The translations under genes and the position numbers were made by a program. From NCBI GenBank assembly GCA_023244935.1, contig JAHFLJ010000001.1:13327-77326 (forward strand): a stretch of DNA of 64,000 nt, given 5' to 3'. The notes beneath the pieces are model-generated. The model did no database searches. It was given only the letters and a program-made list of their open reading frames with translations, and was not told where the DNA came from. Of this stretch, positions 946-60,704 are shown piece after piece (the first letter of the stretch is position 1; each line of letters starts with the position of its first letter). Source of the DNA: Candidatus Liptonbacteria bacterium (GTDB taxonomy: Bacteria; Patescibacteriota; Minisyncoccia; UBA6257; 2-01-FULL-56-20).

Positions 946-1126
946 TGTGGACGAATAAGGAATTGAACCTTTAGACTGCCCTCACGCCAATGCCGTCTTT
1001 GTGCCGCGGGAGAGATTTGAACTCTCATGGTCTTGCGACCGCTGACACCTGAAGCCAGTGCGTCTGCCAGTTTCGCCACCGCGGCATTGGTATAAGGGAT
1101 GAAGCAACCAGCTTCACTACTCGTCC
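946..1126 (-). other. tRNA-like scaffold (acceptor, D-arm, T-arm) enclosing the tRNA-Leu; possible composite or permuted structured RNA
   Basis: Minus strand: 5' GGACGAG-TA-G-TGAA-GCTGGTTGC-TTCA...CCCTT // ...GAGGG-CAGTCT-AAAGG-TTCAATT-CCTTA-TTCGTCC-A-CA 3'. The acceptor (7 bp, one G-U), D-arm, T-loop TTCAATT and a 17-bp helix (983-999 vs 1082-1098) bracket the tRNA-Leu. See findings. Confidence 0.35.
1002..1085 (-). tRNA. tRNA-Leu (anticodon CAG), class II with long variable arm; CCA not encoded
   Basis: Reverse complement reads GCCGCGG-TG-GCG-AAACTGGCAGA-CGC-A-CTGGC-TTCAGGT-GTCAG-CGGTCGCAAGACCATG-GAGAG-TTCAAAT-CTCTC-CCGCGGC-A. It has a perfect 7-bp acceptor, D, anticodon, variable and T arms, and anticodon CAG. 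Confidence 0.85.
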
Positions 1127-8081: not shown

Positions 8082-9653
8082 CTACCGAGCACAGCGGAAC
8101 CCGATGCTGCCGCCCGTATCCGTCGGACCAGTGCTCAAGATCAACGTCTCTACCCCAGCGTACGTGTCATAATACCAATCCCCACCGCGAACGAAGGCGT
8201 AAGGAGTTGACCCTCCGGCGGAGTATGAGGAATTTATCCTGCCAATTCCCTGAGTTGCGGTCCAGGCTGAATTTGAAGGTCCAGCGAGAGTTGGAGATAA
8301 GGTTCCCCAATTTGTTATGTTCGGAAACTCTCGCCATCCTGTCGGCTGTGGTTGATTTCCGTTGGTGATTGTGTCGTTAGTCCATTCCCAAACGTTCCCT
8401 GCCAAGTCCCAAATAATTTGACCATTCGAAAGAGTGTGGGCACGTCGGTGAGTGAAGTCGGCTGTGACAAGGTAGGTTGAATTGGTGTCGTCTGCAGATG
8501 CAATTTGCGCCGCAGAACCATTTGAATTTCCTCTGCCCAAGTATCCACTTCCGACTGAACTTCCGCTCCAATTACTTGATACACTCTGTGCATTCCAAGC
8601 AATTGTTTGCCATTCGTTGTTGGTGATGAGATGTGCTCCGATAGATTGGCAGTAAGAATGTGAAGTTGTTTGATCGATATTTGCGATTGGGTATCCGGCA
8701 GGAGTGGAAGTTAAATACCTTCCGGATGTATTACAAGGATATCCAGAATTATTATACGTTTGATATCCGGTATCGTAAGGTGCCGATCCAAGCGGACCCG
8801 TAGTATCCGCGCACTTGGCTTCGTATTTCATCACCCAAAAATCAGATGTTCCGAAGGTGGAGTTGCCAGGGACTCTAATCCAACCATTTGGAAAGATTCC
8901 TGCTCCAAGATTCATATTATTTCCCATTTCAAAAGAAGCGGGCGCTGTGCCTCCGTCGGTATTTCCTTGCACAATGTATTTTTGGGATTCCAGGGATACG
9001 GCGGTTAGCTTCCAGCTTCCTCCAGACATATAGGTGTAATAATTCAGACTTGTAGTGGTATTGATTGGATCGATGGGAAGTTGTGAAATTGGAGAATTGG
9101 ATGATATCTTTTGGAAGTTAACCGGAATCCAGCCGGTGCCGTCGGTTTTACGGAGATTGGCAGTGGTGACACAATTGTATTGCCAGCCGGTTGGGAGAGT
9201 TGGCAGACCTAAGTTGGCGCACGTTGAAGATATGTCCGGAATGGATACATAAACCACCGTGGGTGTTCCCATAGATCCTGTGGAGACATCTGCAGAAAAC
9301 AGATTAAGCGCGGTGTTGATTGTCGAGAGATCCGAGAATCGATTGGAATCTCTGGCTTGTTTGAGTAATTCCCCTGGGTTAAGAGCCATAATAACAACCA
9401 CACTTAAAATCGCGACTAGGGCGAGGACTACCAGGAGTTCGATAAGGGTAAAGCTTCCCCGTTTGTTTACCCTGAGAGTAGTCGAAGCCTTGCCTGCCGG
9501 CAGGCAGGGGTCAGTCTGAGCCTGCGAAGAATCTAAATTAGATCCTTCCCTGCGTTCAGGATGACAGAAAAGAGAATTCAAAAACCTGGATTGTCCAAGC
9601 AAGTTGGACAATGACAGAATAGAAAAGAAACTTCCTTTGTTTTTATTCTTCAT
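8082..9653 (-). CDS. prepilin-type N-terminal domain protein fused to a C-terminal FGE-sulfatase (SUMF1/C-type-lectin-fold) domain; start uncertain
   Basis: NKRGSFTLIELLVVLALVAIL is a class III signal. The C-terminus carries HLITNNEWQ, WDLAGNVWEWT, RGGDW and GFRCAR motifs of the FGE-sulfatase family. The gene is GC-richer than its neighbours. The ORF's first ~60 codons lie in a dispersed repeat, and no ATG/GTG/TTG lies between the repeat and the KRG site. Confidence 0.6.
   Translation of the reverse strand: MKNKNKGSFFSILSLSNLLGQSRFLNSLFCHPERREGSNLDSSQAQTDPCLPAGKASTTLRVNKRGSFTLIELLVVLALVAILSVVVIMALNPGELLKQARDSNRFSDLSTINTALNLFSADVSTGSMGTPTVVYVSIPDISSTCANLGLPTLPTGWQYNCVTTANLRKTDGTGWIPVNFQKISSNSPISQLPIDPINTTTSLNYYTYMSGGSWKLTAVSLESQKYIVQGNTDGGTAPASFEMGNNMNLGAGIFPNGWIRVPGNSTFGTSDFWVMKYEAKCADTTGPLGSAPYDTGYQTYNNSGYPCNTSGRYLTSTPAGYPIANIDQTTSHSYCQSIGAHLITNNEWQTIAWNAQSVSSNWSGSSVGSGYLGRGNSNGSAAQIASADDTNSTYLVTADFTHRRAHTLSNGQIIWDLAGNVWEWTNDTITNGNQPQPTGWREFPNITNWGTLSPTLAGPSNSAWTATQGIGRINSSYSAGGSTPYAFVRGGDWYYDTYAGVETLILSTGPTDTGGSIGFRCAR
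9510..9616. repeat. 107-bp dispersed repeat unit, copy A (copy B at 50990-51096, ~95% identical)
   Basis: gtcagtctgagcctgcgaagaatctaaattagatccttccctgcgttcaggatgac... plus the ttgtccaagcaagttggacaa hairpin. It is internally palindromic and flanked by CCTGCC...GGCAGG palindromes. Confidence 0.7.
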
Positions 9654-14615: not shown

Positions 14616-14740
14616 TTGAGGGATTTCGCGCAGGCTATTTTAGCTTGGTTTTCCGTCGAAGGCGAAAATAAAATAGCCGAGGGACAGTTATAAATTTCCG
14701 CGGAAGAAATTCAACAACAACCCCTCAAAATTACAAAAGA
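14616..14740. mobile_element. MITE-like element with TTTTGAGGG / CCCTCAAAA inverted termini and internal hairpin (family also at 27484-27664 and 55053-55280)
   Basis: cctttaattttgaggg ... cccctcaaaattacaaaag inverted repeats enclose gctattttagcttggttttccg...cgaaaataaaatagc. Confidence 0.45.
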
Positions 14741-14749
14741 TGAGCCAAA

Positions 14750-14777
14750 TTGACACCGAGTAATAAATTCGTATAGC
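14750..14777 (+). promoter_or_regulatory. sigma70-like promoter for the 14811 gene
   Basis: TTGACA(14750-14755)-16 nt-TATAGC. SD AGGAGGG lies 7 nt before the ATG. Confidence 0.5.
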
Positions 14778-14810
14778 ATTTGCTTAGCAATCAAAAAAAG
14801 GAGGGCCACA

Positions 14811-15185
14811 ATGGTCCGCTCAGTGATAACCGAACGATTCTACTGCGATACCTGTAATTGCGAATACGAGAACGAAGAAGAAGCCACTGCTTGTGAGGCT
14901 ATGAGCCTTGAATTCCGCCCGCCCTATGCGGAAGTCGGTCAAGAAATCGTAAGTGATTTTTTCTGTGGATACTGCCGAATCGGCTACACCGTCGGCGTGA
15001 TTACAGAAATAGAAGGGCCGGTTCCGGCTGACGAAGATATTGAACATCGCCTTATTCAAATCCAGGGAAGAGTCGGGGTTCTCCATGTTTATTATCTCCA
15101 CGTCAAAGCTCCTTGCCCTCTTTGTAAAAGAGAGCTTCCCTGGATTAAAGCCATCCCCCAAATCAGACCAAACAAAAGATTCTAA
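14811..15185 (+). CDS. cysteine-rich (4x CxxC, zinc-ribbon-like) hypothetical protein; compositionally GC-rich
   Basis: 124 aa containing CDTCNC...CEAM, FCGYC and CPLC. It has a strong SD and its own promoter and terminator. GC is clearly above its neighbours. Confidence 0.5.
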   Translation: MVRSVITERFYCDTCNCEYENEEEATACEAMSLEFRPPYAEVGQEIVSDFFCGYCRIGYTVGVITEIEGPVPADEDIEHRLIQIQGRVGVLHVYYLHVKAPCPLCKRELPWIKAIPQIRPNKRF

Positions 15186-15187
15186 TC

Positions 15188-15214
15188 GAGCACATGCCAT
15201 GTGCTCTTTTTTTT
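15188..15214 (+). terminator. intrinsic terminator
   Basis: gagcacatg-c-catgtgctc followed by nine T. Confidence 0.75.
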
Positions 15215-15441
15215 ATCAAGCACATGATATGTGTTCGGCAACCCTGCGCTACGCCCTGCGAAACTTTAGTGAAGCAGGGTAGCCACGCGCCATGTCCTGC
15301 AAATCCGCCAGTCGGCGGCTGGCGGAGAAGTCGGATAACCCCGCCTTGTCATCCCGGGCCACGACCCGGGATCCAGTATTCGTTTTCCGTAATTCCACAT
15401 TCGGCATCCTGCCTTCCACGCTATGCGCTACATATTACAAG

Positions 15442-20744: not shown

Positions 20745-20772
20745 TTTACATATTAAAGTTTTGTGATATAAT
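20745..20772 (+). promoter_or_regulatory. sigma70-like promoter with extended -10 for the 20809 gene
   Basis: TTTACA-16 nt-(TGa)TATAAT (20767-20772). Confidence 0.5.
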
Positions 20773-20808
20773 ACAGCGGCACATTTAATAGAAAGGGAGG
20801 AAGTCGTT

Positions 20809-21171
20809 TTGAAGAAAAAGGGTGCAATCGCAAAGGCGAAAACCAAATACCACATCTGGGGGAACATCGCCAACTCTAACATCACCTTCAATGAGTTCAC
20901 CTGCGCCTATTCCGAGGCACAGGCCAAGCTCGTCCTTCACCGCCGCCTGCAGGCTCGGTATCCGAGGATGGTAATTTTCCTCGACTACCGTGGCTGTAAG
21001 GCTACGGCAGTCCGCCCGAAGCTTTCGGGGATGATTCCCGAGAACGACTCGTCCTACCCCTGTACCGAGGGATGCGGCGGAGAGCCGGAGTTCGTCCCGC
21101 GGACCGAAAAAAAGCAGAAGACCAAAATCTTCCGCAGGACCGTTCGGTCGGCAAACCTCTCGCTCTTCTAG
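20809..21171 (+). CDS. small basic hypothetical protein, GC-rich, TTG start
   Basis: The 120-codon ORF starts with TTG 8 nt after SD AAGGGAGG. A terminator overlaps its stop codon. GC is ~55% versus a ~40% background. Confidence 0.45.
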   Translation: MKKKGAIAKAKTKYHIWGNIANSNITFNEFTCAYSEAQAKLVLHRRLQARYPRMVIFLDYRGCKATAVRPKLSGMIPENDSSYPCTEGCGGEPEFVPRTEKKQKTKIFRRTVRSANLSLF

Positions 21172-21194
21172 CCCCACGATGTGGGGCTTTTTTA
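21171..21194 (+). terminator. intrinsic terminator
   Basis: gccccacgatgtggggc followed by tttttt. Confidence 0.7.
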
Positions 21195-21256
21195 CACTTT
21201 GCAACTTATTTTGCGAAGGCTTCTGTCTTGCCGAGGCAAAACAAGTCGCAAAGTGG

Positions 21257-39067: not shown

Positions 39068-39099
39068 TTGACAATAATTACAAAGTATTTATTATATAA

Positions 39100-39258
39100 A
39101 TTACCTCGGCTGATGCCACGGCCGAAAATCGGGTCCCGCCAAGAGAATTCTGCCGAAACACCGCTCGAACCCTCTTATTCTCACCGGCAATCCCACCTCT
39201 TACGCCCGATCCCCATTGGCAACCCCCGCGGCGAGGACACCCTCGCCGCCTTTTCTTT
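39100..39258 (+). ncRNA. GC-rich long-hairpin element ending in an intrinsic terminator (candidate sRNA)
   Basis: The 5' half (atcgggtcccgccaagagaattctgccg) is imperfectly complementary to the 3' half (cggcaatcccacctcttacgcccgat). It ends with gcggcgagg-acac-cctcgccgc + cttttcttt (39228-39258). TTGACA lies at 39068-39073 but the -10 is weak. Confidence 0.3.
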
Positions 39259-39380
39259 AGAATATCACCTCTTCGTGGTCACAACAAATTTGCCTTCTTG
39301 GCGGAACGGTATTAATTATCAGCAATAAGTCATTGGTCATTGGTTATCGGTGACCAGTTGTTTTATGTTATTCTAAATAC

Positions 39381-39818
39381 ATGTCCATTATCGCCGAAAA
39401 TCGCAAAGCCCACTTCGACTATATTATAGAAGAAACCATAGAAGCAGGCATCAAACTGCTTGGTTTTGAAGTTAAAAGCGCCAAACACGGTAAACTCGAG
39501 CTCGCCGGAAGCTACGTGATTATTCGTGGCGGAGAGGCCTGGCTGATAAATTCAAAAATTGCCCCGGAACAACCCAAAAATGCCCCTGCAGATTATGAAC
39601 CATCCCATATCCGCAAACTACTTTTAAATAAAAAGGAGATCTCTCGGCTCGCCGGCGTATTAGATCAAAAAACATATTCTGCAGTAGGCCTCTCGGCAAA
39701 AGTAAAAAAGAATTTAATTAAAATCGAAATCGGAGTTGGGCGCTCGAAGAAAAAATCCGACAAACGTGAAACTATTAAAAAACGAGAGACTTTAAGAGAA
39801 ATTCGAAGAGAGGTTTAG
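39381..39818 (+). CDS. smpB: SsrA-binding protein SmpB
   Basis: 145 aa. KAHFDYIIEETIEAGIKLLGFEVKS...KLLLNKKE matches SmpB. Confidence 0.9.
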   Translation: MSIIAENRKAHFDYIIEETIEAGIKLLGFEVKSAKHGKLELAGSYVIIRGGEAWLINSKIAPEQPKNAPADYEPSHIRKLLLNKKEISRLAGVLDQKTYSAVGLSAKVKKNLIKIEIGVGRSKKKSDKRETIKKRETLREIRREV

Positions 39819-39895: not shown

Positions 39896-40263
39896 GGGGA
39901 TGATGGGCTTCGCCGAGAGACGGAGAGCTTCCCTGCGAGCCGAGCGCAATCTCGCAAATCTTGCACAAACTACTAACTGCCAACTTTAAAGTTGCAGCTC
40001 CTGCCTACGCCTACGCGTAACGCACGGGGATCTCCTGCCTGATTTATCACGCAAGAGGATCGGCTAGCCTTTGCCCTTTGGGTTAATACCGGTCTTATAT
40101 AAAAGGACTACTTCGCGAAGAGGCGACACGACTCTCGCGGATAAAAAATCGTGTCGTCCTGATCAAAAATCAGAACCGTTTCAAATTTATTTTTGAAACT
40201 ACGCTCGTAGACGGGCTGTCTTTGCCCCTTTCGCACGAGGGTTCAACTCCCTCCATCTCCACA
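39896..40263 (+). ncRNA. ssrA: tmRNA (SsrA)
   Basis: 5' GGGGATGATGGGCTTCGCC...GCGAGCCGAG... and 3' GGACGAGGGTTCAACTCCCTCCATCTCC-ACA are clearly alignable to Bacillus-type tmRNA. The tag ORF GCC AAC TTT AAA GTT GCA GCT CCT GCC TAC GCC TAC GCG TAA (39979-40020) gives ANFKVAAPAYAYA. The promoter TTGTCA-17-TATTAT ends 8 nt before the 5' G. Confidence 0.85.
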
Positions 40264-40266
40264 AAC

Positions 40267-50643: not shown

Positions 50644-50713
50644 TTGACTTGTATTTTATATTTCTATGTTATAATGTGAACTCCCGCCAAGCAATTGTGT
50701 CGCGCGGTAAGAC

Positions 50714-50742
50714 TTGACAAATTTATCTAGGAGTGCTATCAT
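50714..50742 (+). promoter_or_regulatory. sigma70-like promoter TTGACA-17-TATCAT driving a non-coding unit
   Basis: The -35 is at 50714-50719 and the -10 at 50737-50742. Confidence 0.55.
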
Positions 50743-50748
50743 ATACCC

Positions 50749-50953
50749 AATCTCGAAGTGTTCATTTCAAATCTGGGGGCAGGAATTTTTCTCAGTTTTA
50801 GGATGGTTTGGCTTCGGCGAAACCTCTCCTCGGTTTAATTCTATCCTCTTTCCGTTTTACGCGAAAGAGAACCAAATCCATTTATGGACGTCCCCAGGTT
50901 TGAGTTGATCACTTCTCATCCGGACACTGCATGCAGTGTCCGGGTTTTGTTTT
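50749..50953 (+). ncRNA. candidate ~200-nt structured sRNA (6S-like closing helix) with its own promoter and terminator
   Basis: No credible ORF. The 5' cgaagtg...ttcaaatctgggg pairs with the 3' ccccaggtttga...cacttct (6 + 12 bp). The terminator is ccggacactgca-tgcagtgtccgg + gttttgtttt (50920-50953). Confidence 0.4.
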
Positions 50954-50989
50954 ACATATTCATTCGTAAAATTCCTGCCGATAGGCAGG

Positions 50990-51096
50990 GTCATTCTGAG
51001 CCCGCGAAGAATCTAAATTAGATCCTTCCCTGCGTTCAGGATGACAGAAAAAAGAATTCAAAAAACTGGATTGTCCAAGCAAGTTGGACAATGACA
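50990..51096. repeat. 107-bp dispersed repeat unit, copy B
   Basis: ~95% identical to 9510-9616, preceded by the cctgccgataggcagg palindrome and followed by an ATTCGTA-rich sequence. It generates the spurious ORF 50960-51175. Confidence 0.7.
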
Positions 51097-51202
51097 AACC
51101 GAAAAGCTTCTTTCTCTTGTTCGTATTATTTTTATTATTCGTAGACATTCGTATATTAATATTGTTATGAGTCACAAGTTATAAGTTATTAGTCATAAGT
51201 TC

Positions 51203-52879
51203 CTAAATCCACGGAATCGGCCCGGTCGTCCCCTCAACTTCGTCAAAAGTAGTCATCCCGGACAAAACTTTCAAAACTCCGTCTTGTTGCATGGTCACCA
51301 TCATCTGCTTCTCCGCCAGCTTTCGGAGAGAGCGCTCGGAAACTTCGGTTAAAATAACTTCTTCCAACTCCGGCCCACCTTTGAAAAACTCGAAAATTCC
51401 TCGTCTTCCTTTATAGCCAAAACCATTACAAGTCTCACAGCCAACCGGCGCGAAAACCGTTATTTTTTCATATGGTTTTTTATCTACTCTTGCCGGAACC
51501 TTTTCCAAATATTTTTTTATCTGCTCGATTTTTTTTGCGTCCAAATCAACCGGTTTTTTACAATTGTCGCAAAGCTTCCTAACTAAGCGTTGAGCAATGA
51601 TTAAAGTAACCGCCGGACCGATGCTTGCCGGCTTTACGCCAACGTCAACAAGACGCGGGATTGCGCCGACCGCGCTATTGGTATGAAGCGTAGACAAAAC
51701 CAAATGCCCGGTTAACGCTGCTTGAATCGCAATTTCCGCAGTCTCTTGATCGCGGATTTCACCGACGAGAAGCACATCCGGGTCTTGACGCACGATTGCT
51801 CTTAATCCTCCGGCGAAAGTATACCCGGCGTCCGGATCAACTTGTGTTTGCTCAATTCCTAAAATTCTATATTCAATCGGATCTTCAACGGTAATAATTT
51901 TTGTTTCCGGGTCAACCAACTTTCGGAGGAACGCGTAAAGAGTCGTGGTTTTTCCGGAGCCGGTCGGTCCTGTATTCAAAATCAGTCCATTTGGCCTTTT
52001 TAGCTCCGCTTCCACCAGAGCCAGGTCGTCCTCTCGCAGACCGAGCTGTGGCAAGGTCACATTAATTCCCGCCGGATCCAAAATACGCATAACAATTGTT
52101 TCTCCGAATTCCGAAGGGATAAGCGAAACGCGCATTTCGATTTCTTTTTCCGGCAACCCTATTGTAAATCTTCCGTCTTGTGGCTCGGAATGAACATTTA
52201 ATTTTAATTCGCAAAGTAATTTTATTCTGGTAACCAAGCTGACATAGTTTTTTATCGGCAAATTTGCGATGTCGTGAAGTAGTCCATCCACGCGATACCT
52301 AACCCGCGCATCTTTTTCTTGAGCTTCAAAATGAACGTCAGAGGCTCTGGTGGTTAACGCTCCGGCTAAAAGTGTTTCCAAAAGACTCGACACGCTTGCG
52401 GATTTATAATCAAAGGTTGCCAGGGTCTGTTGAACCATCTGAAAAGTCTTAAACTTTTGCATATCCTCAGCGAATCTCACCGCGTCGATATTTATTCCGC
52501 CGGTAATTGACTCTTTCCCTTTAGAAACAAATTTATAAAATTCCAGGGCTTGTTTAACCGCCGACAAAGAGACTACGAACGGCTTAATTTTATATCCCTT
52601 TTCTTCCAAATAGGTAATCGCTTTTTGCGCCTCTTCGGTTGTTGGGTCATAAAAAATTACCGCTAAGTCTTTATTATTTAATTGTATGCCAACTCCCAAA
52701 GCCTTCCTTGCTTCCTCTTCCGGAAGCAAAGCAACCGCCTCAATCGAAATCGGAGTTTTCCCTAGGTCAGCGTAAGTCAACTTAAGTCTCTCGGCGCGAC
52801 GCTTCGCTTCCCGCTCCTCTCCGGCGCGCCTAATTGCTTCTAATTTATTCGTTAACTCACCTTGGGGTGTAAGGTTCAT
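51203..52879 (-). CDS. pilB: type II/IV secretion system ATPase (PilB/GspE family)
   Basis: Walker A GPTGSGKTTT, Asp box, Walker B and His box, a tetracysteine motif CDNC...CETC, and an N-terminal GSPII-like domain. Confidence 0.85.
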   Translation of the reverse strand: MNLTPQGELTNKLEAIRRAGEEREAKRRAERLKLTYADLGKTPISIEAVALLPEEEARKALGVGIQLNNKDLAVIFYDPTTEEAQKAITYLEEKGYKIKPFVVSLSAVKQALEFYKFVSKGKESITGGINIDAVRFAEDMQKFKTFQMVQQTLATFDYKSASVSSLLETLLAGALTTRASDVHFEAQEKDARVRYRVDGLLHDIANLPIKNYVSLVTRIKLLCELKLNVHSEPQDGRFTIGLPEKEIEMRVSLIPSEFGETIVMRILDPAGINVTLPQLGLREDDLALVEAELKRPNGLILNTGPTGSGKTTTLYAFLRKLVDPETKIITVEDPIEYRILGIEQTQVDPDAGYTFAGGLRAIVRQDPDVLLVGEIRDQETAEIAIQAALTGHLVLSTLHTNSAVGAIPRLVDVGVKPASIGPAVTLIIAQRLVRKLCDNCKKPVDLDAKKIEQIKKYLEKVPARVDKKPYEKITVFAPVGCETCNGFGYKGRRGIFEFFKGGPELEEVILTEVSERSLRKLAEKQMMVTMQQDGVLKVLSGMTTFDEVEGTTGPIPWI

Positions 52880-52943
52880 ATTTACTAAGTTTATATTTAA
52901 ATACTCTTCCCCGCAAAGAAGAATTTGTGTAAAGATGCTCTCT

Positions 52944-52972
52944 TTGACTTTTTTGCTATTTTATAGTATAAT
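52944..52972 (+). promoter_or_regulatory. consensus sigma70 promoter TTGACT-17-TATAAT for the 53018 gene
   Basis: TTGACT at 52944-52949 and TATAAT at 52967-52972. Confidence 0.6.
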
Positions 52973-53017
52973 ATACTCAGATATTTGAATAAAAACTGAA
53001 AGGAAAAAGGAGTCGTT

Positions 53018-53803
53018 GTGAAGCTTTTCGTTGCTCTACTTGTCGCGGTTCTCTCATTTCTCGCGACCGGATGCGGGGTGGTCATCGAGGCGACAAAGTC
53101 GTCGCTCTCGGGAATAAAAATTTCGTCCCCGGTCGTCGACCAGCTCGGCTTCCGAGCCGAATCTCACAAGCTCATCATCAAAAACCGCTCGTCTCTTACG
53201 GCGGGAATCATTATCAACGGGTACAACTCCAAATTGGAGTTGTACCCCAACGAGGACTTGGTCTTTACCAGCTCGTGGGAGCCGTTCGTCAATGCCGAAA
53301 TGACCATCGTCCTCGTTTTTCGCGAAACCGACGGTTCATACGGCGGCTACGCGGAGAAGACTTTCAATTCGGGCAGCTTTGCCCAGTCGGAAGCGTGGAC
53401 ACTCTTCGCCTCCGACATCACCTGCTATGGTCAACGACTCGCGGAGTCGGACGATGCCCCCGAATTCGAACCGAGAGTTAGGCAGTTTCGCCTTCCTCGC
53501 GAGTGGTTCAATGGGACAAGCTTCTTCGGGATGATTAATGACACGCAAGGAGAGTTGCGCGTCACCACCAACGGATCCGTCCGCACCGAAACCCTCGCAC
53601 CCGGCGAAGTCTACACGGTTCGGACAAGAGACTGGTCATCGTCTTCTCGTTGGGGAAACCGCCAACCTGTGATCATCCAGCTCGAAGGCTGGGATGATGA
53701 TGGTCGATACATCGGAATTTGTGAACGACATTTCTATCCGACCTCGGACGGCGTCCGTTCACAGTTCGAGGCCGTGGCTCCCTCCTCCCTTTATCGTCGC
53801 TAG
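53018..53803 (+). CDS. hypothetical lipoprotein (GTG start), strongly GC-rich relative to the window
   Basis: The lipobox LATGC follows the signal peptide MKLFVALLVAVLSFLATGC. SD AAAGGAG lies 5-6 nt upstream. A terminator follows. GC is ~55%. Confidence 0.5.
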   Translation: MKLFVALLVAVLSFLATGCGVVIEATKSSLSGIKISSPVVDQLGFRAESHKLIIKNRSSLTAGIIINGYNSKLELYPNEDLVFTSSWEPFVNAEMTIVLVFRETDGSYGGYAEKTFNSGSFAQSEAWTLFASDITCYGQRLAESDDAPEFEPRVRQFRLPREWFNGTSFFGMINDTQGELRVTTNGSVRTETLAPGEVYTVRTRDWSSSSRWGNRQPVIIQLEGWDDDGRYIGICERHFYPTSDGVRSQFEAVAPSSLYRR

Positions 53804-53824
53804 CCTTTGTCTCCATTAATCACC

Positions 53825-53853
53825 GCCGCCCGAAAGGGCGGCTTTTCACTTTT
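53825..53853 (+). terminator. intrinsic terminator
   Basis: gccgccc-gaaa-gggcggc followed by ttttcactttt. Confidence 0.7.
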
Positions 53854-55686: not shown

Positions 55687-58122
55687 ATGATTAAAGTTTT
55701 AAGTAAAATGAGCAGGTTCTTAAAGCGCAAAAGTAAAAAAGAACTATTTTTATATTTGCTCGGGATTATTGGAATTATAATTTTAGCCGGAGGCCTTTTT
55801 GTTCTTTATTTAATCAAAACCCTTCCCTCTGTAGAACAAATTAAAACCAGAGAAATGTCCCAGTCTACCAAAATTTTTGACCGAAGCGGAACGGTTCTTT
55901 TATATGAAATTAGCGCCGGAGAAAAGCGCACGGTTATTCCGGAAGATAAGATTCCCCAATCTCTAAAAGACGCGATACTTTCGATTGAAGATGAAAAATT
56001 TTATGAAGAACCGGCTTTTGACTGGAGATCGATGATCCGCGCGCTTCTCGCCAATCTAAAAAGTGGAGAAGTGGTGCAAGGAGGATCAACCATAACTCAG
56101 CAGTTGGCAAAAAACGCGTTCCTTTCGGCTGAACAAACTATTCTACGCAAAGTTAAAGAGTTGATTCTGGCGGTAAGAATTAATCAATATTATTCGAAAG
56201 ACAAAATCCTTTGGCTTTATATAAACGAAGTTCCTTTCGGACCTACTGTTTATGGGGCGGAGTCCGCGAGTTTTTTATATTTCGGGAAATCCGCAACTGA
56301 CCTTTCTGTTCCCGAAAGCGCGGTTCTCGCCGCCATACTCAAAGCGCCAAGCTACTATTATCCGGGAGGAAATCACGTGCCCGAACTTTTAAAACGAAAA
56401 GATTTGGTCTTAAAAAAGATGAAAGATCTCGGAAAAATATCCGAAAAAGAATTTTCCTCCGCGATTAAAGAAAAAATTAAATTTATTCCGATTATCTCCG
56501 GCATAAAAGCCCCTCATTTTGTTATGACGGTACAAGATTATTTAATAAATAAATATGGAGAAGAATTGGTAAGAAAGGGTGGTCTTCAGATTACAACTAC
56601 TCTCGATTGGTCTTTGCAACAAGCCGCGGAAAAGGCAGTTAAAGATGGTGCTTTAAACAACGAAAAACTTTACAAGGGAAAGAATGCCGCGCTGGTAGCT
56701 GAAAACGCAACCTCGGGTCAAATTTTGGCGCTGGTTGGCTCTCGGGACTACTTCGAGACTGAAAATGATGGAAATTTTAATGTCGCCACTCAAGGACTTC
56801 GCCAGCCGGGATCTTCTCTTAAGCCTTTCGTATATCTAGCGGCTTTTGAAAAAGGATTGACTCCCGACACGATTCTTTTTGATGTCCCCACGGAGTTTTC
56901 CGCAAACAACGCTGTCTGTCCGCCGGTTCCTAATTATAAAAGCGAAAACACAAAATGTTTTCATCCGGAAAATTTTGACCATATTTTTGTCGGCCCGGTT
57001 AGCATGAGAGATGCGCTGGCTCAATCAATCAATATTCCTGCGGTAAAAACCCTTTATATTGCCGGTCTCAATAATGTTATCAAAAAAGCTAATCTATTCG
57101 GACTTCAAACTCTTAACGACCCCTCTATATACGGACTCTCTTTGGTTTTAGGTGGAGGAGCGGTTCACTTAATCGACTCGGTTGAAGCTTATTCAACTCT
57201 CGCAAACGATGGAGAAAGAGCGGAACAATCCTATATCCTCGAAATTAAAGATGCCAAAGGAAATATTTTAGAAAAATATTCTCCTAAAATCTCCAGAGCT
57301 ACCGAACCTCAATATGCCCGAGAAATAAATAATATTCTTTCTGATGCAACTGCTCGCGGGCCTCTTTTCCAGAATAGTCTTGATTTAACCGTTTTCCCGG
57401 GAAAAGACGTAGCTATGAAGACCGGTACCAGCAATGATTATCGAGATGCGTGGACTCTTGGTTATACTCCTGAATTAGTTGTAGGTGTTTGGGCTGGAAA
57501 CAACGATAACTCCCCGATGCAAAGAAGTGGCTCAAGCCTCTTGGCGGCTGTTCCGATTTGGAATGCTTTTATGAAAGAAGCTTTGAAAATAATTCCAACC
57601 GGAGCATTTATAAAACCTGATATCAGAATTCCGGAAAAACCTATTTTACGTGGAGAATATGTAGTTAATGGTCAAATTCATAATATTCTTTATTATATCG
57701 ACAAAAATAATCCAACCGGACCGGTTCCGGAGAACCCTCAAGAAGATTCTCAATTTATTAATTGGGAAACCGGAGTTCTTTCTTGGGTTTCTCGACACGC
57801 AACTGAACTCCAAACGAGGTTTTCCTCCTCCGGGTTTGGACAAATAGACGTCAAAATAAATAATCCACAAAATAATTCTTTTTCTTCCGGAGAAATATTT
57901 CTTAATACTTCAATCTCCTCACTCAATAATTTATCGGAAGTAAGAGTTTATTTTAATGATACTTTAATTTACAATGCCGGACTTCCTAAAGAAAAAACTT
58001 ATAATTTTGTTTGGTCTTTTACTCCTGTTCAAATAAATCAACAAAATACCTTATCGGTTGAGGTCTTTGATGAGACCGGGAAAAGTAGCAAATCTTCGGT
58101 TATAATTTATAAACAAAATTAA
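55687..58122 (+). CDS. penicillin-binding protein 1A (bifunctional glycosyltransferase/transpeptidase)
   Basis: An N-terminal TM is followed by GT51 motifs (EDEKFYEEP, GGSTITQQLAKN) and transpeptidase SxxK (SSLKP), SxN and KTG(T) motifs. Confidence 0.85.
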   Translation: MIKVLSKMSRFLKRKSKKELFLYLLGIIGIIILAGGLFVLYLIKTLPSVEQIKTREMSQSTKIFDRSGTVLLYEISAGEKRTVIPEDKIPQSLKDAILSIEDEKFYEEPAFDWRSMIRALLANLKSGEVVQGGSTITQQLAKNAFLSAEQTILRKVKELILAVRINQYYSKDKILWLYINEVPFGPTVYGAESASFLYFGKSATDLSVPESAVLAAILKAPSYYYPGGNHVPELLKRKDLVLKKMKDLGKISEKEFSSAIKEKIKFIPIISGIKAPHFVMTVQDYLINKYGEELVRKGGLQITTTLDWSLQQAAEKAVKDGALNNEKLYKGKNAALVAENATSGQILALVGSRDYFETENDGNFNVATQGLRQPGSSLKPFVYLAAFEKGLTPDTILFDVPTEFSANNAVCPPVPNYKSENTKCFHPENFDHIFVGPVSMRDALAQSINIPAVKTLYIAGLNNVIKKANLFGLQTLNDPSIYGLSLVLGGGAVHLIDSVEAYSTLANDGERAEQSYILEIKDAKGNILEKYSPKISRATEPQYAREINNILSDATARGPLFQNSLDLTVFPGKDVAMKTGTSNDYRDAWTLGYTPELVVGVWAGNNDNSPMQRSGSSLLAAVPIWNAFMKEALKIIPTGAFIKPDIRIPEKPILRGEYVVNGQIHNILYYIDKNNPTGPVPENPQEDSQFINWETGVLSWVSRHATELQTRFSSSGFGQIDVKINNPQNNSFSSGEIFLNTSISSLNNLSEVRVYFNDTLIYNAGLPKEKTYNFVWSFTPVQINQQNTLSVEVFDETGKSSKSSVIIYKQN

Positions 58123-59225
58123 GACTTAAGTATCGGCATTAATATATACACAAACGATCCTTCATTCGGCTCTCGAATTGTCGCCGGTTTACTTTCGTCG
58201 TTTATTCCGATAAAAACTTCTTCGGTTTTTACGGCTCTTACTCCGTCACTTAAATATTTCCAATTAAAGCTTATTTTTTCGAATGAGCCTTTTATTTTTG
58301 AAGAAAGAGTATAAACATTTTCTCCGACAGATTCTTCGTTAGAAAATATTTTAATTGCTCGGTCTCCTTCTTTTTCAATATTTATCTCGTTAGTTCTTGA
58401 ACTTAAAATCGAGGATAATTTTAAGGCATTTAATAAATCATTTTTATTTATGACTACTTCGGCATCTACCTTTTTAGGTATCAGCTGTTTATAATCCGGA
58501 AATTTATTATCCAGTAAACGAGAAATTATCTCTACTTTTTCGTTTTCCAATAAAATTTGGCTTTCTTCGATATATATATTCACTTCGCCTTCTTTAAAAA
58601 TTTTTGAAGCTTCCACCGCGGTTTTCAAAGGGATCAAACAAGTAATATTTTCCATTCCTTCTTGTTTAAAATCTCCCTCTTTTATTTTTTTCTCGGCAAG
58701 CCGGAAGCTATCCGTGGAAGTTAAAACTAAAAACTCGTTCTCCAGCGTGAATAAAACTGAATTTAGATCCGGTCGGTTTTCTAATACCTGCGCCGCGGAG
58801 AGAACTTGTTCAAGTGAGCTTTTAAAATTGTCGGCACTCATCGAAATAAAATTCTTTTTACTTTTTATTTTAGGAATTAGAGGATATTCATCCGAAGAAA
58901 TACACTGAAGCTTGGCATTATAGTTATCCGTCTTAATATCTAAAACTCCGTTTTTAACTTCCAAATTTATTCTTTCGGTTTGGATTCCATTTACTATTCC
59001 TGAAAATAAAGCCAACGGTATTGTCGTCACTCCTTCTTCAATTACCTTCCCGGCTATGTAAGCGGTTATCGCAATTTCGAGGTTGGTCGAAACTAATTTA
59101 ATCTTATTATTTTTCGCCTCAAATAATATATTTTTTAATATCGGCAATTCTTTATTCTCTCCTCCTGATCTGGAAACAGAGTCTAATCCTTCTTTTAATT
59201 TTTCTTTAATTACTACTACATTCAT
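58119..59225 (-). CDS. dnaN: DNA polymerase III subunit beta (sliding clamp)
   Basis: 368 aa with three-domain clamp architecture, immediately downstream of dnaA. Confidence 0.85.
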   Translation of the reverse strand: MNVVVIKEKLKEGLDSVSRSGGENKELPILKNILFEAKNNKIKLVSTNLEIAITAYIAGKVIEEGVTTIPLALFSGIVNGIQTERINLEVKNGVLDIKTDNYNAKLQCISSDEYPLIPKIKSKKNFISMSADNFKSSLEQVLSAAQVLENRPDLNSVLFTLENEFLVLTSTDSFRLAEKKIKEGDFKQEGMENITCLIPLKTAVEASKIFKEGEVNIYIEESQILLENEKVEIISRLLDNKFPDYKQLIPKKVDAEVVINKNDLLNALKLSSILSSRTNEINIEKEGDRAIKIFSNEESVGENVYTLSSKIKGSFEKISFNWKYLSDGVRAVKTEEVFIGINDESKPATIREPNEGSFVYILMPILKS

Positions 59226-59345: not shown

Positions 59346-60704
59346 TTATTCCTTGAAAACAAGTTCTTTAATTAAATTCATTTTTTGGCTCAAGGAAGAA
59401 TTTTGGTTGATTTCCCTGGAGATTTTCTCAACCGCGTGAATTGCAGTGGTATGATCCCTACCCATCTTTTCCCCAATGTGTGGGTAAGACATCTCCAGGA
59501 TTTCCCTAATTAAGAACATCGCTACTTGGCGAGGCTCAACAATCTCCTTTTTTCGCACTCTCCCGGTCATTTCTTCCACGGAGATATTGTAAAAATCGGA
59601 AACAGCTTTAATAATTTGATCTTCGGAAACTCGATGAGAAAAATCTTTAACCGTTTTTCGAATAATCTCTTCAACCTCTTTTGGATTAAGGTCAATTCTT
59701 TTGGCTTCTCGATAAAAAAGTATTTTATTTAAAACTCCTTCGATTTCTCGGACGTTCTTTTTTACTTTTCTTGCTATTAGATCAATAACCTCTTCACTTA
59801 GATTCCTATCTTGTTCTAATAATTTACTCTTAATAATCGCCACCCGCATCTCGTATTCCGGAAACCCGATGTCTGCGGTCAGTCCTGCCTCAAAACGCGA
59901 CCTGAGGCGTTCCTCAAGGGTTGGTAGGGATTGTGGAGGACGGTCGGAAGAAATTATTATTTGTTTGTTTAGTTCATGCAGAGCGTTAAAAGTATAGAAA
60001 AATTCTTCTTCGGTTGCTCTTTTACCGCCCACAAACTGAATATCATCGATAATTAAAAGATCGCAGTCTCGATATCTCCTTTTAACGTCTTCCATTCTTT
60101 TATTTTTTATTCCCCAAATCACATCGCTGGTAAATTTTTCGGAGGTCACATATCGCGGCCGTAATTTTCCTCCGTATCGCGCCTTAACTTCATTTCCAAT
60201 GCCTTGTATTAAATGAGTTTTTCCTAAACCAACCCCTCCATAAACAAAGAAAGGATTATATTTGGTTCCAATCTCGTCGATAATCGCGTTTGCGGCCGCG
60301 AAGGCCAATTCGTTTGAAGAACCAACCACAAAAGATTTTAAAGTGTAGCGGGAATTTAAATTTGTCTCCGGATCTATCTTAAAATCCAAATTTATTTTAT
60401 TTTCGAATCGTTGAAAATCCCCCGTGGTAATTTTTTGAGTTTTCGGCTCAAGCACGGCAGTGCTATGAACTACAAACTCCAAGTTTTTTGTAGAAGGGTC
60501 AAAATTTCTAACCGCTCCGAGAATATTTTTATTATATTTATTTTCAACCCACTCCTTCGCGAAATTATTCGGCAAAGAGATAATCAAAGTTCCATCTCGC
60601 TTATCGACAATCCTGCTATTTTTAAGCCAGGTTGCAAAATTAGCCCTAGAAAGCTGAACCTCCATCTCACCTAAAGCAGACTGCCAAAGTTTTTCCAAAT
60701 CCAT
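59346..60704 (-). CDS. dnaA: chromosomal replication initiator DnaA
   Basis: AAA+ Walker A GGVGLGKTHL, sensor motifs, and a C-terminal DNA-binding signature (HTTAIHAVEKI). 452 aa. Confidence 0.9.
   Translation of the reverse strand: MDLEKLWQSALGEMEVQLSRANFATWLKNSRIVDKRDGTLIISLPNNFAKEWVENKYNKNILGAVRNFDPSTKNLEFVVHSTAVLEPKTQKITTGDFQRFENKINLDFKIDPETNLNSRYTLKSFVVGSSNELAFAAANAIIDEIGTKYNPFFVYGGVGLGKTHLIQGIGNEVKARYGGKLRPRYVTSEKFTSDVIWGIKNKRMEDVKRRYRDCDLLIIDDIQFVGGKRATEEEFFYTFNALHELNKQIIISSDRPPQSLPTLEERLRSRFEAGLTADIGFPEYEMRVAIIKSKLLEQDRNLSEEVIDLIARKVKKNVREIEGVLNKILFYREAKRIDLNPKEVEEIIRKTVKDFSHRVSEDQIIKAVSDFYNISVEEMTGRVRKKEIVEPRQVAMFLIREILEMSYPHIGEKMGRDHTTAIHAVEKISREINQNSSLSQKMNLIKELVFKE

Follow-up and report, generated by a model that had tools for sequence, protein, structure and literature searches.

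The window, a 64,000-nt stretch of contig JAHFLJ010000001.1 from a "Candidatus Liptonbacteria" bacterium, carries between pilB and yebC a gene for a 261-amino-acid (aa) lipoprotein precursor, which by GC content at third codon positions (GC3) is the strongest compositional outlier of the window. Our analysis favors, with a probability of roughly 0.6, the explanation that this is a native, vertically inherited surface lipoprotein gene, probably highly expressed, in which selection for a hairpin-rich transcript maintains the GC content. A sequence-only reading had called the gene compositionally foreign, that is, horizontally transferred, and had named beforehand the observation that would speak against transfer. 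That observation was made: orthologues of the same GC content occupy the same slot in related genomes, and the claim of transfer did not hold.

Codon positions 1, 2, and 3 of the open reading frame (ORF) have GC contents of 53, 46, and 67%, respectively, compared with 42.1% for the whole window. GC3 is 0.668 in this gene and 0.30 to 0.47 in all other non-nested window ORFs of at least 150 aa. Both C and G are raised at third positions (C3 and G3) relative to window genes on the same strand, and the GC profile of the locus goes up at the start codon and down past the terminator. The sequence-only reading had described a self-contained promoter-gene-terminator unit and a compositional outlier, which is borne out by GC3 and by the positions of the signals; the lipoprotein ORF, GTG start, Shine-Dalgarno sequence, promoter spacing, lipobox, and terminator were all found where it had placed them. 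Its remark that the gene lies amid minus-strand neighbors applies to one side only. The upstream genes (pilB and ruvB) are on the minus strand, while the downstream genes yebC, ruvC, and that of a penicillin-binding protein (PBP) are on the plus strand, and the gene stands at a strand switch between the minus-strand pilB side and the plus-strand yebC side.

A search of 5.8 billion proteins gave 13 close homologues (261 to 263 aa, 58 to 96% identical), none of them named or carrying a Pfam domain. Among 1.84 billion cluster representatives, a profile search gave 38 family members of about 222 to 283 aa plus one of 377 aa, and no homologue outside this small family was found in either set. By these searches, the protein family is unannotated and restricted to Patescibacteria, with about 38 clusters. 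Contigs bearing homologues were drawn from ENA, Logan, and JGI samples, among them ERZ27279977, ERZ27279942, and JGI 3300044712. In GTDB, the nearest species representatives are metagenome-assembled genomes of Patescibacteria; peptide patterns of the family had no match in the GTDB representative genomes, and one metagenome scan yielded a single extra locus.

The locus has the order TsaE, ruvB, and pilB-type ATPase (minus strand), lipoprotein gene (plus strand), yebC, ruvC, a small ORF, and class A PBP (plus strand), and dnaN and dnaA (minus strand). The slot between pilB and yebC holds a positional orthologue in 11 independent contigs (L003, L005, L006, L017, L018, L021, L024, L007, L015, L025, and L020), and in the first ten of these dnaN-dnaA lies about 5 kb away from the lipoprotein gene. 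The gene is thus present at the syntenic site in 11 of the 11 related contigs found, down to a PilB identity of 59%, and its distribution is not patchy. In L007, whose PilB is 74% identical, the slot holds a 252-aa lipoprotein of 33% identity. Two distant family members are likewise placed between pilB and yebC, namely an ORF in the "Liptonbacteria" contig L015, which matches the family in hhalign (99.9%, E 7e-32), and P0049 in L025. In relatives with PilB identities of 52 to 57%, the pilB-yebC slot contains unrelated small ORFs or the synteny is broken. In three contigs, genes unrelated to the lipoprotein occupy the slot upstream of pilB: L011:5605-5874 (minus strand) adjoins ruvC, and L012:5372-5671 and L013:4957-5388 (both minus strand) adjoin yebC. 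They encode a lipoprotein of 89 aa, a membrane protein of 143 aa, and an ORF product of 99 aa. In distant relatives, the site seems to be variable and to take up different small ORFs, of which two or more would encode envelope proteins.

Signs of mobility were sought around the gene. There is no integrase or transposase among its neighbors pilB, ruvB, yebC, and ruvC, and no tRNA gene adjoins it, the window's sole tRNA and transfer-messenger RNA (tmRNA) genes being far off. A search of the window showed no flanking or att-like repeats around the gene beyond chance 12-mers. A scan of viral contigs for the gene gave no match, nor did a comparison of the lipoprotein with PHROGs.

Orthologues in low-GC relatives have GC contents of 0.55 to 0.605 and GC3 values of 0.67 to 0.75, while their flanking genes have GC3 values of 0.27 to 0.52. 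In the two GC-rich genomes, the family member has the same composition: GC 0.564 and GC3 0.668 in L025 (genome 0.57; neighbors' GC3 0.60 to 0.77) and GC 0.60 and GC3 0.69 in L015 (genome 0.58), and in neither is the gene a compositional outlier. Across host genomes spanning 40 to 58% GC, family GC stays at about 55 to 62%. Synonymous divergence (dS) of the neighboring genes from the window ranges from 1.2 to infinity, i.e., synonymous sites are saturated; dS of the lipoprotein gene itself between lineages is 1.2 to 3, and its GC3 is nonetheless unchanged. The comparison across relatives, which the sequence-only reading had proposed as a check, thus went against transfer, with high GC in every sampled lineage despite saturated dS. 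Because the same GC content is found in the family across saturating divergence, we regard the high GC of the gene as a maintained family property and not as a trace of recent transfer.

The high GC content of the coding sequence (CDS) is accompanied by an unusual abundance of local Watson-Crick hairpins, in 2- to 4-fold excess. The window transcript folds at -335 kcal/mol, compared with -293 ± 9 kcal/mol in dinucleotide shuffles (z = -4.5), and in synonymous-codon shuffles, which keep the protein, the codon usage, and the GC content, z is -4.8 for the window CDS. Ten tested sequences from the close family, L007, and L025 have folding z scores of -3.2 to -4.9, and L015 gave -3.6 and -7.0 in two runs, so that the excess is seen in all 11 family members tested. 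The 21 other window genes have a mean z of -0.62 (standard deviation, 1.14; minimum, -2.37), and GC-rich genes of GC-rich relatives range from +1.1 to -2.0. The excess is local (summed 90-nt windows, z -3.8 to -4.8) and is not found in the first 90 nt of the CDS. In ten alleles, 54 perfect inverted repeats have stems of 7 bp or longer, versus 23.8 expected (controls, 34 versus 32.1), and 27 have stems of 8 bp or longer, versus 6.2 expected (controls, 9 versus 8.7).

Local helices recur at homologous positions with compensatory third-position changes, e.g., at alignment columns 562 to 608 and 665 to 689. In nine such helices, double changes occur in 13 pairs and 24 cells, compared with 8.8 and 13.0 in shuffles and 2 to 5 and 3 to 7 in slid controls; we consider this covariation suggestive. 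A single conserved mRNA architecture was considered and is not supported, given the weak covariation term and some covariation in local helices only. Rfam gave no match at the site of the gene in the window. The window allele has a perfect 29-nt palindrome within the CDS (positions 53219 to 53247) that is unique in the window; shuffles gave zero chance matches, and a stem of this length arose in 0 of 200 synonymous shuffles. Its left arm encodes aa changes specific to the allele shared by the window and P0001 (L006), GYNSK compared with GK.S. in the closest other alleles. At the same position, L020 has an 11/14 quasi-palindrome (read by hand from the alignment). The palindrome is a candidate footprint of a template-switch mutation.

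Two contigs from one sample (ERZ27279942) make it possible to follow the gene between near-identical strains. We compared L020:1-1074, a 1,074-bp contig, and L006:1-1074 with window positions 52764 to 53837. L020 is 100% identical to the window at the pilB end, in roughly 60 nt at the start and 55 nt at the end of the gene, and throughout the terminator, while its gene body is only about 75% identical (dS 1.23; nonsynonymous divergence [dN] 0.14). L006 differs from the window in one patch of about 50 nt only, which covers the spacer of the ribosome-binding site and the signal peptide. The L020 and L006 contigs have a common start point, as expected of a bubble in an assembly graph. These mosaics indicate that alleles are exchanged by recombination between near-identical backbones. 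Paralogues, silent cassettes, and the template of a diversity-generating retroelement were not found, as blastn and tblastn of the gene against the 64-kb window matched the gene alone, and the window likewise showed no phase-variable repeats.

Selection on the nucleic acid is most likely behind the composition of the gene, and we infer that it acts through the stability of a compact, highly expressed mRNA. The gene is a resident chromosomal gene of a Patescibacteria (Paceibacteria-type) bacterium, and its product would be anchored to the membrane through an N-terminal lipid. The protein has a conserved flexible linker and two homologous Ig-like domains and is most likely an abundant structural or adhesion protein of the surface. 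Stable hairpins require G:C pairs, so that synonymous sites would remain GC-rich while the rest of the genome turned AT-rich. A compact transcript would resist single-strand-specific endonucleases, and the resulting long-lived mRNA would yield abundant protein; the window itself encodes RNase Y and a beta-CASP enzyme of the RNase J type. Fast evolution and allele recombination would be as expected of an exposed surface protein. The sparing of the first 90 nt, the translation-initiation region, fits selection at the RNA level. Selection can act on genic G+C apart from codon usage, as experiments show (PMC4478552).

Several observations weigh against this explanation. (i) The antisense strand has a similar folding excess (z -3.1 to -6.6), and in most alleles G.U pairs are rarer in native folds than in shuffles. 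Because native folds are poor in G.U and the excess is strand symmetric, the signal consists of true Watson-Crick inverted repeats, and for the same reason folding alone gives no distinction between the RNA and the DNA level. (ii) For the CDS as a whole, RNAalifold gives a covariation term of only -1.37 of -109.9 kcal/mol, and the local-helix covariation comes from 8 related sequences, with the structure derived from those same sequences. (iii) Another GC-rich gene of the window, at 20809, has an orthologue with a high GC3 (0.80), but a folding excess is seen only inconsistently (z -2.3 and -0.2); GC retention may thus have further causes besides hairpins. (iv) Parsimony-polarized changes from G or C to A or T exceed the reverse by about 1.6- to 2-fold, a count that distant, saturated outgroups bias in that direction. 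Such an excess could reflect slow decay, and it would also arise from AT-biased mutation that selection counteracts. (v) Ribosomal protein L20 in the window has no GC3 shift, so the composition of the lipoprotein gene is not ordinary "highly expressed gene" codon bias. (vi) High expression and mRNA stability are read from signals in the sequence. (vii) Neither Lgt nor LspA had a match among the 20 ORFs of the 64-kb window scanned with Pfam. Translational selection for C-ending codons had also been tried as an explanation; it was dropped given the strong strand asymmetry in the window, the increase of both C3 and G3, and the absence of a shift in rplT.

Among the alternatives, an origin of the hairpins at the DNA level has the most in its favor, yet we consider it unlikely. 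Replication template switching at quasi-palindromes would repeatedly make and perfect inverted repeats; the process is documented to create and maintain hairpins (PMC8794818). A strongly transcribed head-on gene could favor template switching, which would also produce clustered aa changes. In that case, GC content and hairpins would not be a selected mRNA property but either a mutational by-product or a diversifier built into the gene. The strand-symmetric, G.U-poor excess is as this process would leave it, and so is the pairing of the 29-nt palindrome with the quasi-palindrome of L020, together with the allele-specific aa replacements of the left arm; moreover, the gene lies on the strand opposite the local majority, with a third-position skew that indicates the lagging strand. 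However, yebC, ruvC, and the PBP gene have the same orientation and no hairpin excess, the spared first 90 nt are a better fit to RNA-level selection, only one clear candidate event is seen, and a purely mutational process leaves a GC3 of about 0.7 unexplained. Template switching may nevertheless be behind at least some of the repeats.

GC-biased gene conversion and introgression are both less likely than selection on the nucleic acid. The former, with allele exchange at a recombination hot spot lifting local GC3, seems quite improbable. Among the forces that may shape bacterial GC content, biased gene conversion is an accepted candidate, cited in PMC4478552. Recombination within the gene is evident from the mosaic L006, L020, and window alleles, but the GC shift ends at the start codon and the terminator and does not decay in a tract-like manner. 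In GC-rich genomes, GC3 of the gene equals or slightly trails that of its neighbors, and the excess of inverted repeats is left unexplained. The shift of about +25 to 35 GC3 points seen here is also far larger than the effects reported for gene conversion in bacteria.

We give little credence to an ancient transfer into the ancestor of the clade, or to recurrent introgression from GC-rich relatives, as an explanation that dispenses with selection on composition. Family members do exist at the same locus in the GC-rich L015 and L025, and allele replacement does occur, as the L020 and L006 mosaics show. However, alleles of low-GC genomes cluster together (58 to 96% identity) and are only about 20 to 30% identical to those of GC-rich genomes; because of this low identity, no recent introgression from GC-rich genomes is visible. 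At the dS of the gene (1.2 to 3), unconstrained sites would have moved to the host's ~40%. Finally, a recent acquisition, in which an un-ameliorated cassette from a GC-rich donor inserted between pilB and yebC, would account for the sharp contrast in GC3 and for the self-contained unit, but is extremely unlikely and is contradicted as the cause of the composition because the neighbors' synonymous sites are saturated and the gene has yet retained its GC content in the same slot in all sampled relatives, with neither an integrase, tRNA, flanking direct repeat, or phage or PHROG match nor a homologue beyond the family in the two protein searches to speak for it.

The signals for expression, listed with the other features of the locus in the table, are conserved along with the gene. 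A scan of both strands of the 64-kb window found just 7 promoter sites equal in quality to TTGACT-17-TATAAT. The promoter TTGAC[T/A]-17-TATAAT is kept in 12 of the 12 loci examined, including L007 and the GC-rich genomes L015 and L025, where it forms an AT-rich island within a GC-rich genome. A strong Shine-Dalgarno sequence is present in every orthologous locus; in the window it ends 5 nt ahead of the GTG start, which is backed by an ATG at the homologous position in orthologues. A GC-rich hairpin and T-run follow the gene in all loci, with sequences that differ between loci. Conservation of promoter, Shine-Dalgarno sequence, and terminator points to a monocistronic unit under strong, constitutive transcription. 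The conserved intergenic motif may be a divergent pilB promoter or a regulator site.

Table. Features of the lipoprotein locus, in window coordinates
Feature	Position	Strand	Details and basis
Conserved intergenic motif CTTCCCCGCAAAGAAG...TTTGTGTAAAG	52906..52934	.	Between pilB start and -35 box; upstream alignment of window-clade loci
Sigma-70-type promoter	52944..52972	+	-35 TTGACT 52944-52949, 17-nt spacer, -10 TATAAT 52967-52972; 11/12 consensus matches
AT-rich 5' untranslated leader (predicted)	52979..53017	+	Start placed ~7 nt past -10 box; Shine-Dalgarno AAAGGAG 53006-53012
CDS of 261-aa lipoprotein precursor	53018..53803	+	GTG start, TAG stop; GC 55.5%, GC3 66.8%
Signal peptide MKLFVALLVAVLSFLATG and lipobox Cys19	53018..53074	+	TGC at 53072-53074; PROSITE-type rule
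Linker, residues 20-45	53075..53152	+	Low-confidence model; clade-conserved sequence EATKSSLSGIKVSSP..LG
Beta-sandwich domain 1, residues about 46-135 (about 50-130 in the model)	53153..53422	+	AlphaFold2
Perfect 14+1+14 palindrome GGGTACAACTCCAA-A-TTGGAGTTGTACCC	53219..53247	.	Inside CDS; unique in window
Beta-sandwich domain 2, residues about 150-258 (about 153-253 in the model)	53465..53791	+	AlphaFold2, alignments
Intrinsic terminator	53825..53853	+	GCCGCCC-GAAA-GGGCGGC (53825-53842), then TTTTCACTTTT T-run

The N terminus of the protein, MK-LFVALLVAVLSFLATG-C19 (...SFLATG-C19), fits a lipobox rule of the PROSITE PS51257 type (a basic n-region, a hydrophobic core, and [LIVMFWSTAG]2-[LIVMFYSTAGCQ]-[AGS]-C within the first ~35 residues), as the sequence-only reading had predicted. 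The rule is satisfied by 14 of the 14 close homologues and 21 of the 39 family representatives; Cys19 is invariant in an alignment of 15 sequences, and remoter members have a lipobox or an ordinary signal peptide. The protein is presumably lipidated in an Lgt/LspA-dependent manner. An AlphaFold2 model built on a 39-sequence alignment (predicted local distance difference test [pLDDT], 86; predicted template-modeling score, 0.77) is all beta apart from low-confidence helices in the signal peptide and in part of the linker, and ends in ...YRR. Residues 20 to 36 of the linker have a pLDDT below 50 though they are well conserved in the clade, and the linker DNA forms a hairpin that is kept in most alleles (A3 columns 68 to 95). 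The two beta-sandwich domains are mutually homologous (hhalign, 98%, E 6e-14); domain 2 carries the family motif RLPREW(F/W)xGT...(I/V)ND/NT and the C-terminal ...RR.

No Pfam or NCBIfam family was matched by the lipoprotein, and a sequence profile search of the PDB gave no significant match (best E, 0.63). Foldseek placed the tandem Ig-like extracellular domain of PepT1/2 and repeats of bacterial adhesins at the top, with template-modeling (TM) scores of no more than 0.34. The gene is under purifying selection, with dN/dS values of 0.10 to 0.24, compared with 0.03 to 0.10 for its neighbors. Its dN is about three times that of the neighbors, with 60% aa identity where the neighbors hold 80 to 93%. 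From the model and the signal sequence, we conclude that the product is probably an extracytoplasmic, lipid-anchored protein of tandem Ig-like domains that represents an undescribed family. Fold class, anchoring, and evolutionary rate suggest a structural or adhesive role at the surface. The protein is a candidate major surface component and, given the mosaic alleles, is possibly a determinant of strain specificity.

In its expression strategy, and in that only, the gene resembles lpp, the gene of Braun's lipoprotein in Escherichia coli, which is also a monocistronic envelope lipoprotein gene with a strong AT-rich promoter and its own terminator. The lpp mRNA is described as rich in hairpins, as the transcript of the present gene is. 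Lpp mRNA is unusually stable, with a half-life of 11.5 min compared with an average of about 1.3 min (summarized in PMC10260701). The proteins differ in that Lpp is a 58-residue helical coiled coil of a diderm envelope, whereas the present protein has about 242 mature residues in two beta-sandwiches. There is no relation to the Lpp family in sequence or fold, as a short coiled coil with a peptidoglycan-linked C-terminal Lys is not what the 261-aa precursor offers. The host group is regarded as monoderm-like. Tandem Ig-like modules of known proteins (the PepT1/PepT2 extracellular domain, adhesin repeats, pilins, and beta-sandwich lipoproteins such as TssJ and ExsB) likewise stay within the TM-score limit given above, at identities of 3 to 17% among the matches listed; on the model, this resemblance to Ig-like surface modules appears generic and yields no functional assignment.

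Two further comparisons concern variation and origin. Like mycoplasma Vlp/VlhA, the product would be a fast-evolving, lipid-anchored surface protein whose alleles differ sharply between near-identical strains. In contrast to those systems, the gene is single copy, variation comes from allelic recombination between strains, and the window contains no cassettes. The gene also shares with "alien" genes and genomic islets a sharp deviation in GC content and codon usage and a promoter and terminator of its own. Unlike them, it is not patchily distributed, lacks mobility genes, att-like repeats, and a donor, and has a composition that persists and that matches the family elsewhere. The kind of gene is known, namely, a strongly expressed envelope lipoprotein unit, while the family is undescribed and a GC-pinned, hairpin-dense CDS is unusual.

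Third codon positions in the window are strand asymmetric. Minus-strand genes have G3 of 0.25 to 0.32 and C3 of 0.13 to 0.19, while plus-strand genes have C3 of 0.21 to 0.30 and G3 of 0.10 to 0.18; given this asymmetry, comparisons of codon usage that pool the strands can mislead. The cumulative GC skew drops steadily to about 55 kb of the window, and dnaN (58119-59225) and dnaA (59346-60704) follow on the minus strand. A replication origin probably lies near dnaA, in which case the lipoprotein gene, yebC, ruvC, and the PBP gene are head-on to replication.

The sequence-only reading counted the lipoprotein gene as the third foreign gene of the window, after those at 14811 and 20809. The ORF at 20809-21171 is indeed GC-rich (56.2%; GC3 75.8%), while that at 14811-15185 is barely so (47.2%; GC3 45.6%). 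The former (plus strand; 120 aa; unit 20745-21200) has a TTG start, the promoter TTTACA-16-TATAAT with an upstream TG, the Shine-Dalgarno sequence AAAGGGAGG, and a terminator, and is flanked by minus-strand genes for an RNase J-like protein and a Mur ligase. Around its start, the sequence GGA(A)GTCGTT-NTG-AAG is similar to the one at the start of the lipoprotein gene. It has no family match and two homologues (60% identity), of which the syntenic L022:2991-3362 has a GC content of 62% and a GC3 of 80% in a contig of 43% GC. Its GC content is thus maintained as in the lipoprotein gene, with GC3 of 0.76 to 0.80 in two lineages. The ORF at 14811-15185 (plus strand; unit 14740-15230) encodes a Cys-rich product of 124 aa, with TTGACA-17-TATAGC, the Shine-Dalgarno sequence AAAGGAGGG, and the terminator GAGCACATGCCATGTGCTC followed by a T-run, and has no credible family matches.

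Other features of the window are noncoding or unusual. The gap between ruvB and pilB (50650-51200) comprises about 480 to 560 nt without a called gene; relatives have a gap at this position too, which measures about 340 nt in L025. The gap in the window has a promoter match, TTGACA-17-TATCAT, at 50714 (plus strand), and Rfam gave nothing credible there, the best being a subthreshold CrcZ-like match of 22 bits; the gap may contain an unannotated noncoding RNA or a long pilB leader. GC-rich noncoding stretches are found at 15190-15440, after the 14811 terminator, and at 39068-39380, where the stretch follows TTGACA-16-TATTAT and lies upstream of a 145-aa ORF (39381-39818) just before the tmRNA gene. 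Neither stretch matched an Rfam family at an E value of 1 or less. The only Rfam matches at gathering level in the window are this tmRNA (39896-40264, plus strand, 115 bits) and one tRNA (1002-1085, minus strand). A minus-strand ORF at 8082-9653 encodes an unusual pilin-like protein with a type IV pilin N-methylation motif and an FGE-sulfatase-like domain.

Screens based on composition would call the lipoprotein gene "alien" though it is native, which makes it a cautionary case for transfer calls in Patescibacteria bins. The family also offers a natural experiment on GC content at synonymous sites, as its GC3 is about 0.7 in genomes of 40 to 58% GC at sites that have fully turned over, and it ties gene-specific GC retention to nucleic acid structure, the hairpin excess being constant in the family and lacking in its neighbors. 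Our findings define a clade-restricted family of tandem beta-sandwich surface proteins, encoded beside a type IV pilus ATPase gene and near the origin of uncultured, episymbiont-type bacteria. It is conceivable, if unlikely, that the CDS has a second, family-wide function or process at the nucleic acid level, as a hairpin-dense, GC-pinned cassette of about 58% GC in genomes of 40 to 58% GC. If so, dense hairpins would give a very long-lived mRNA, letting ribosome-poor, ultrasmall cells mass-produce a surface protein. In a more radical version, the hairpins would serve as templates for switching during replication at a strongly transcribed, head-on gene and would keep rewriting patches of the surface protein, thereby acting as a diversity generator that needs no retroelement.

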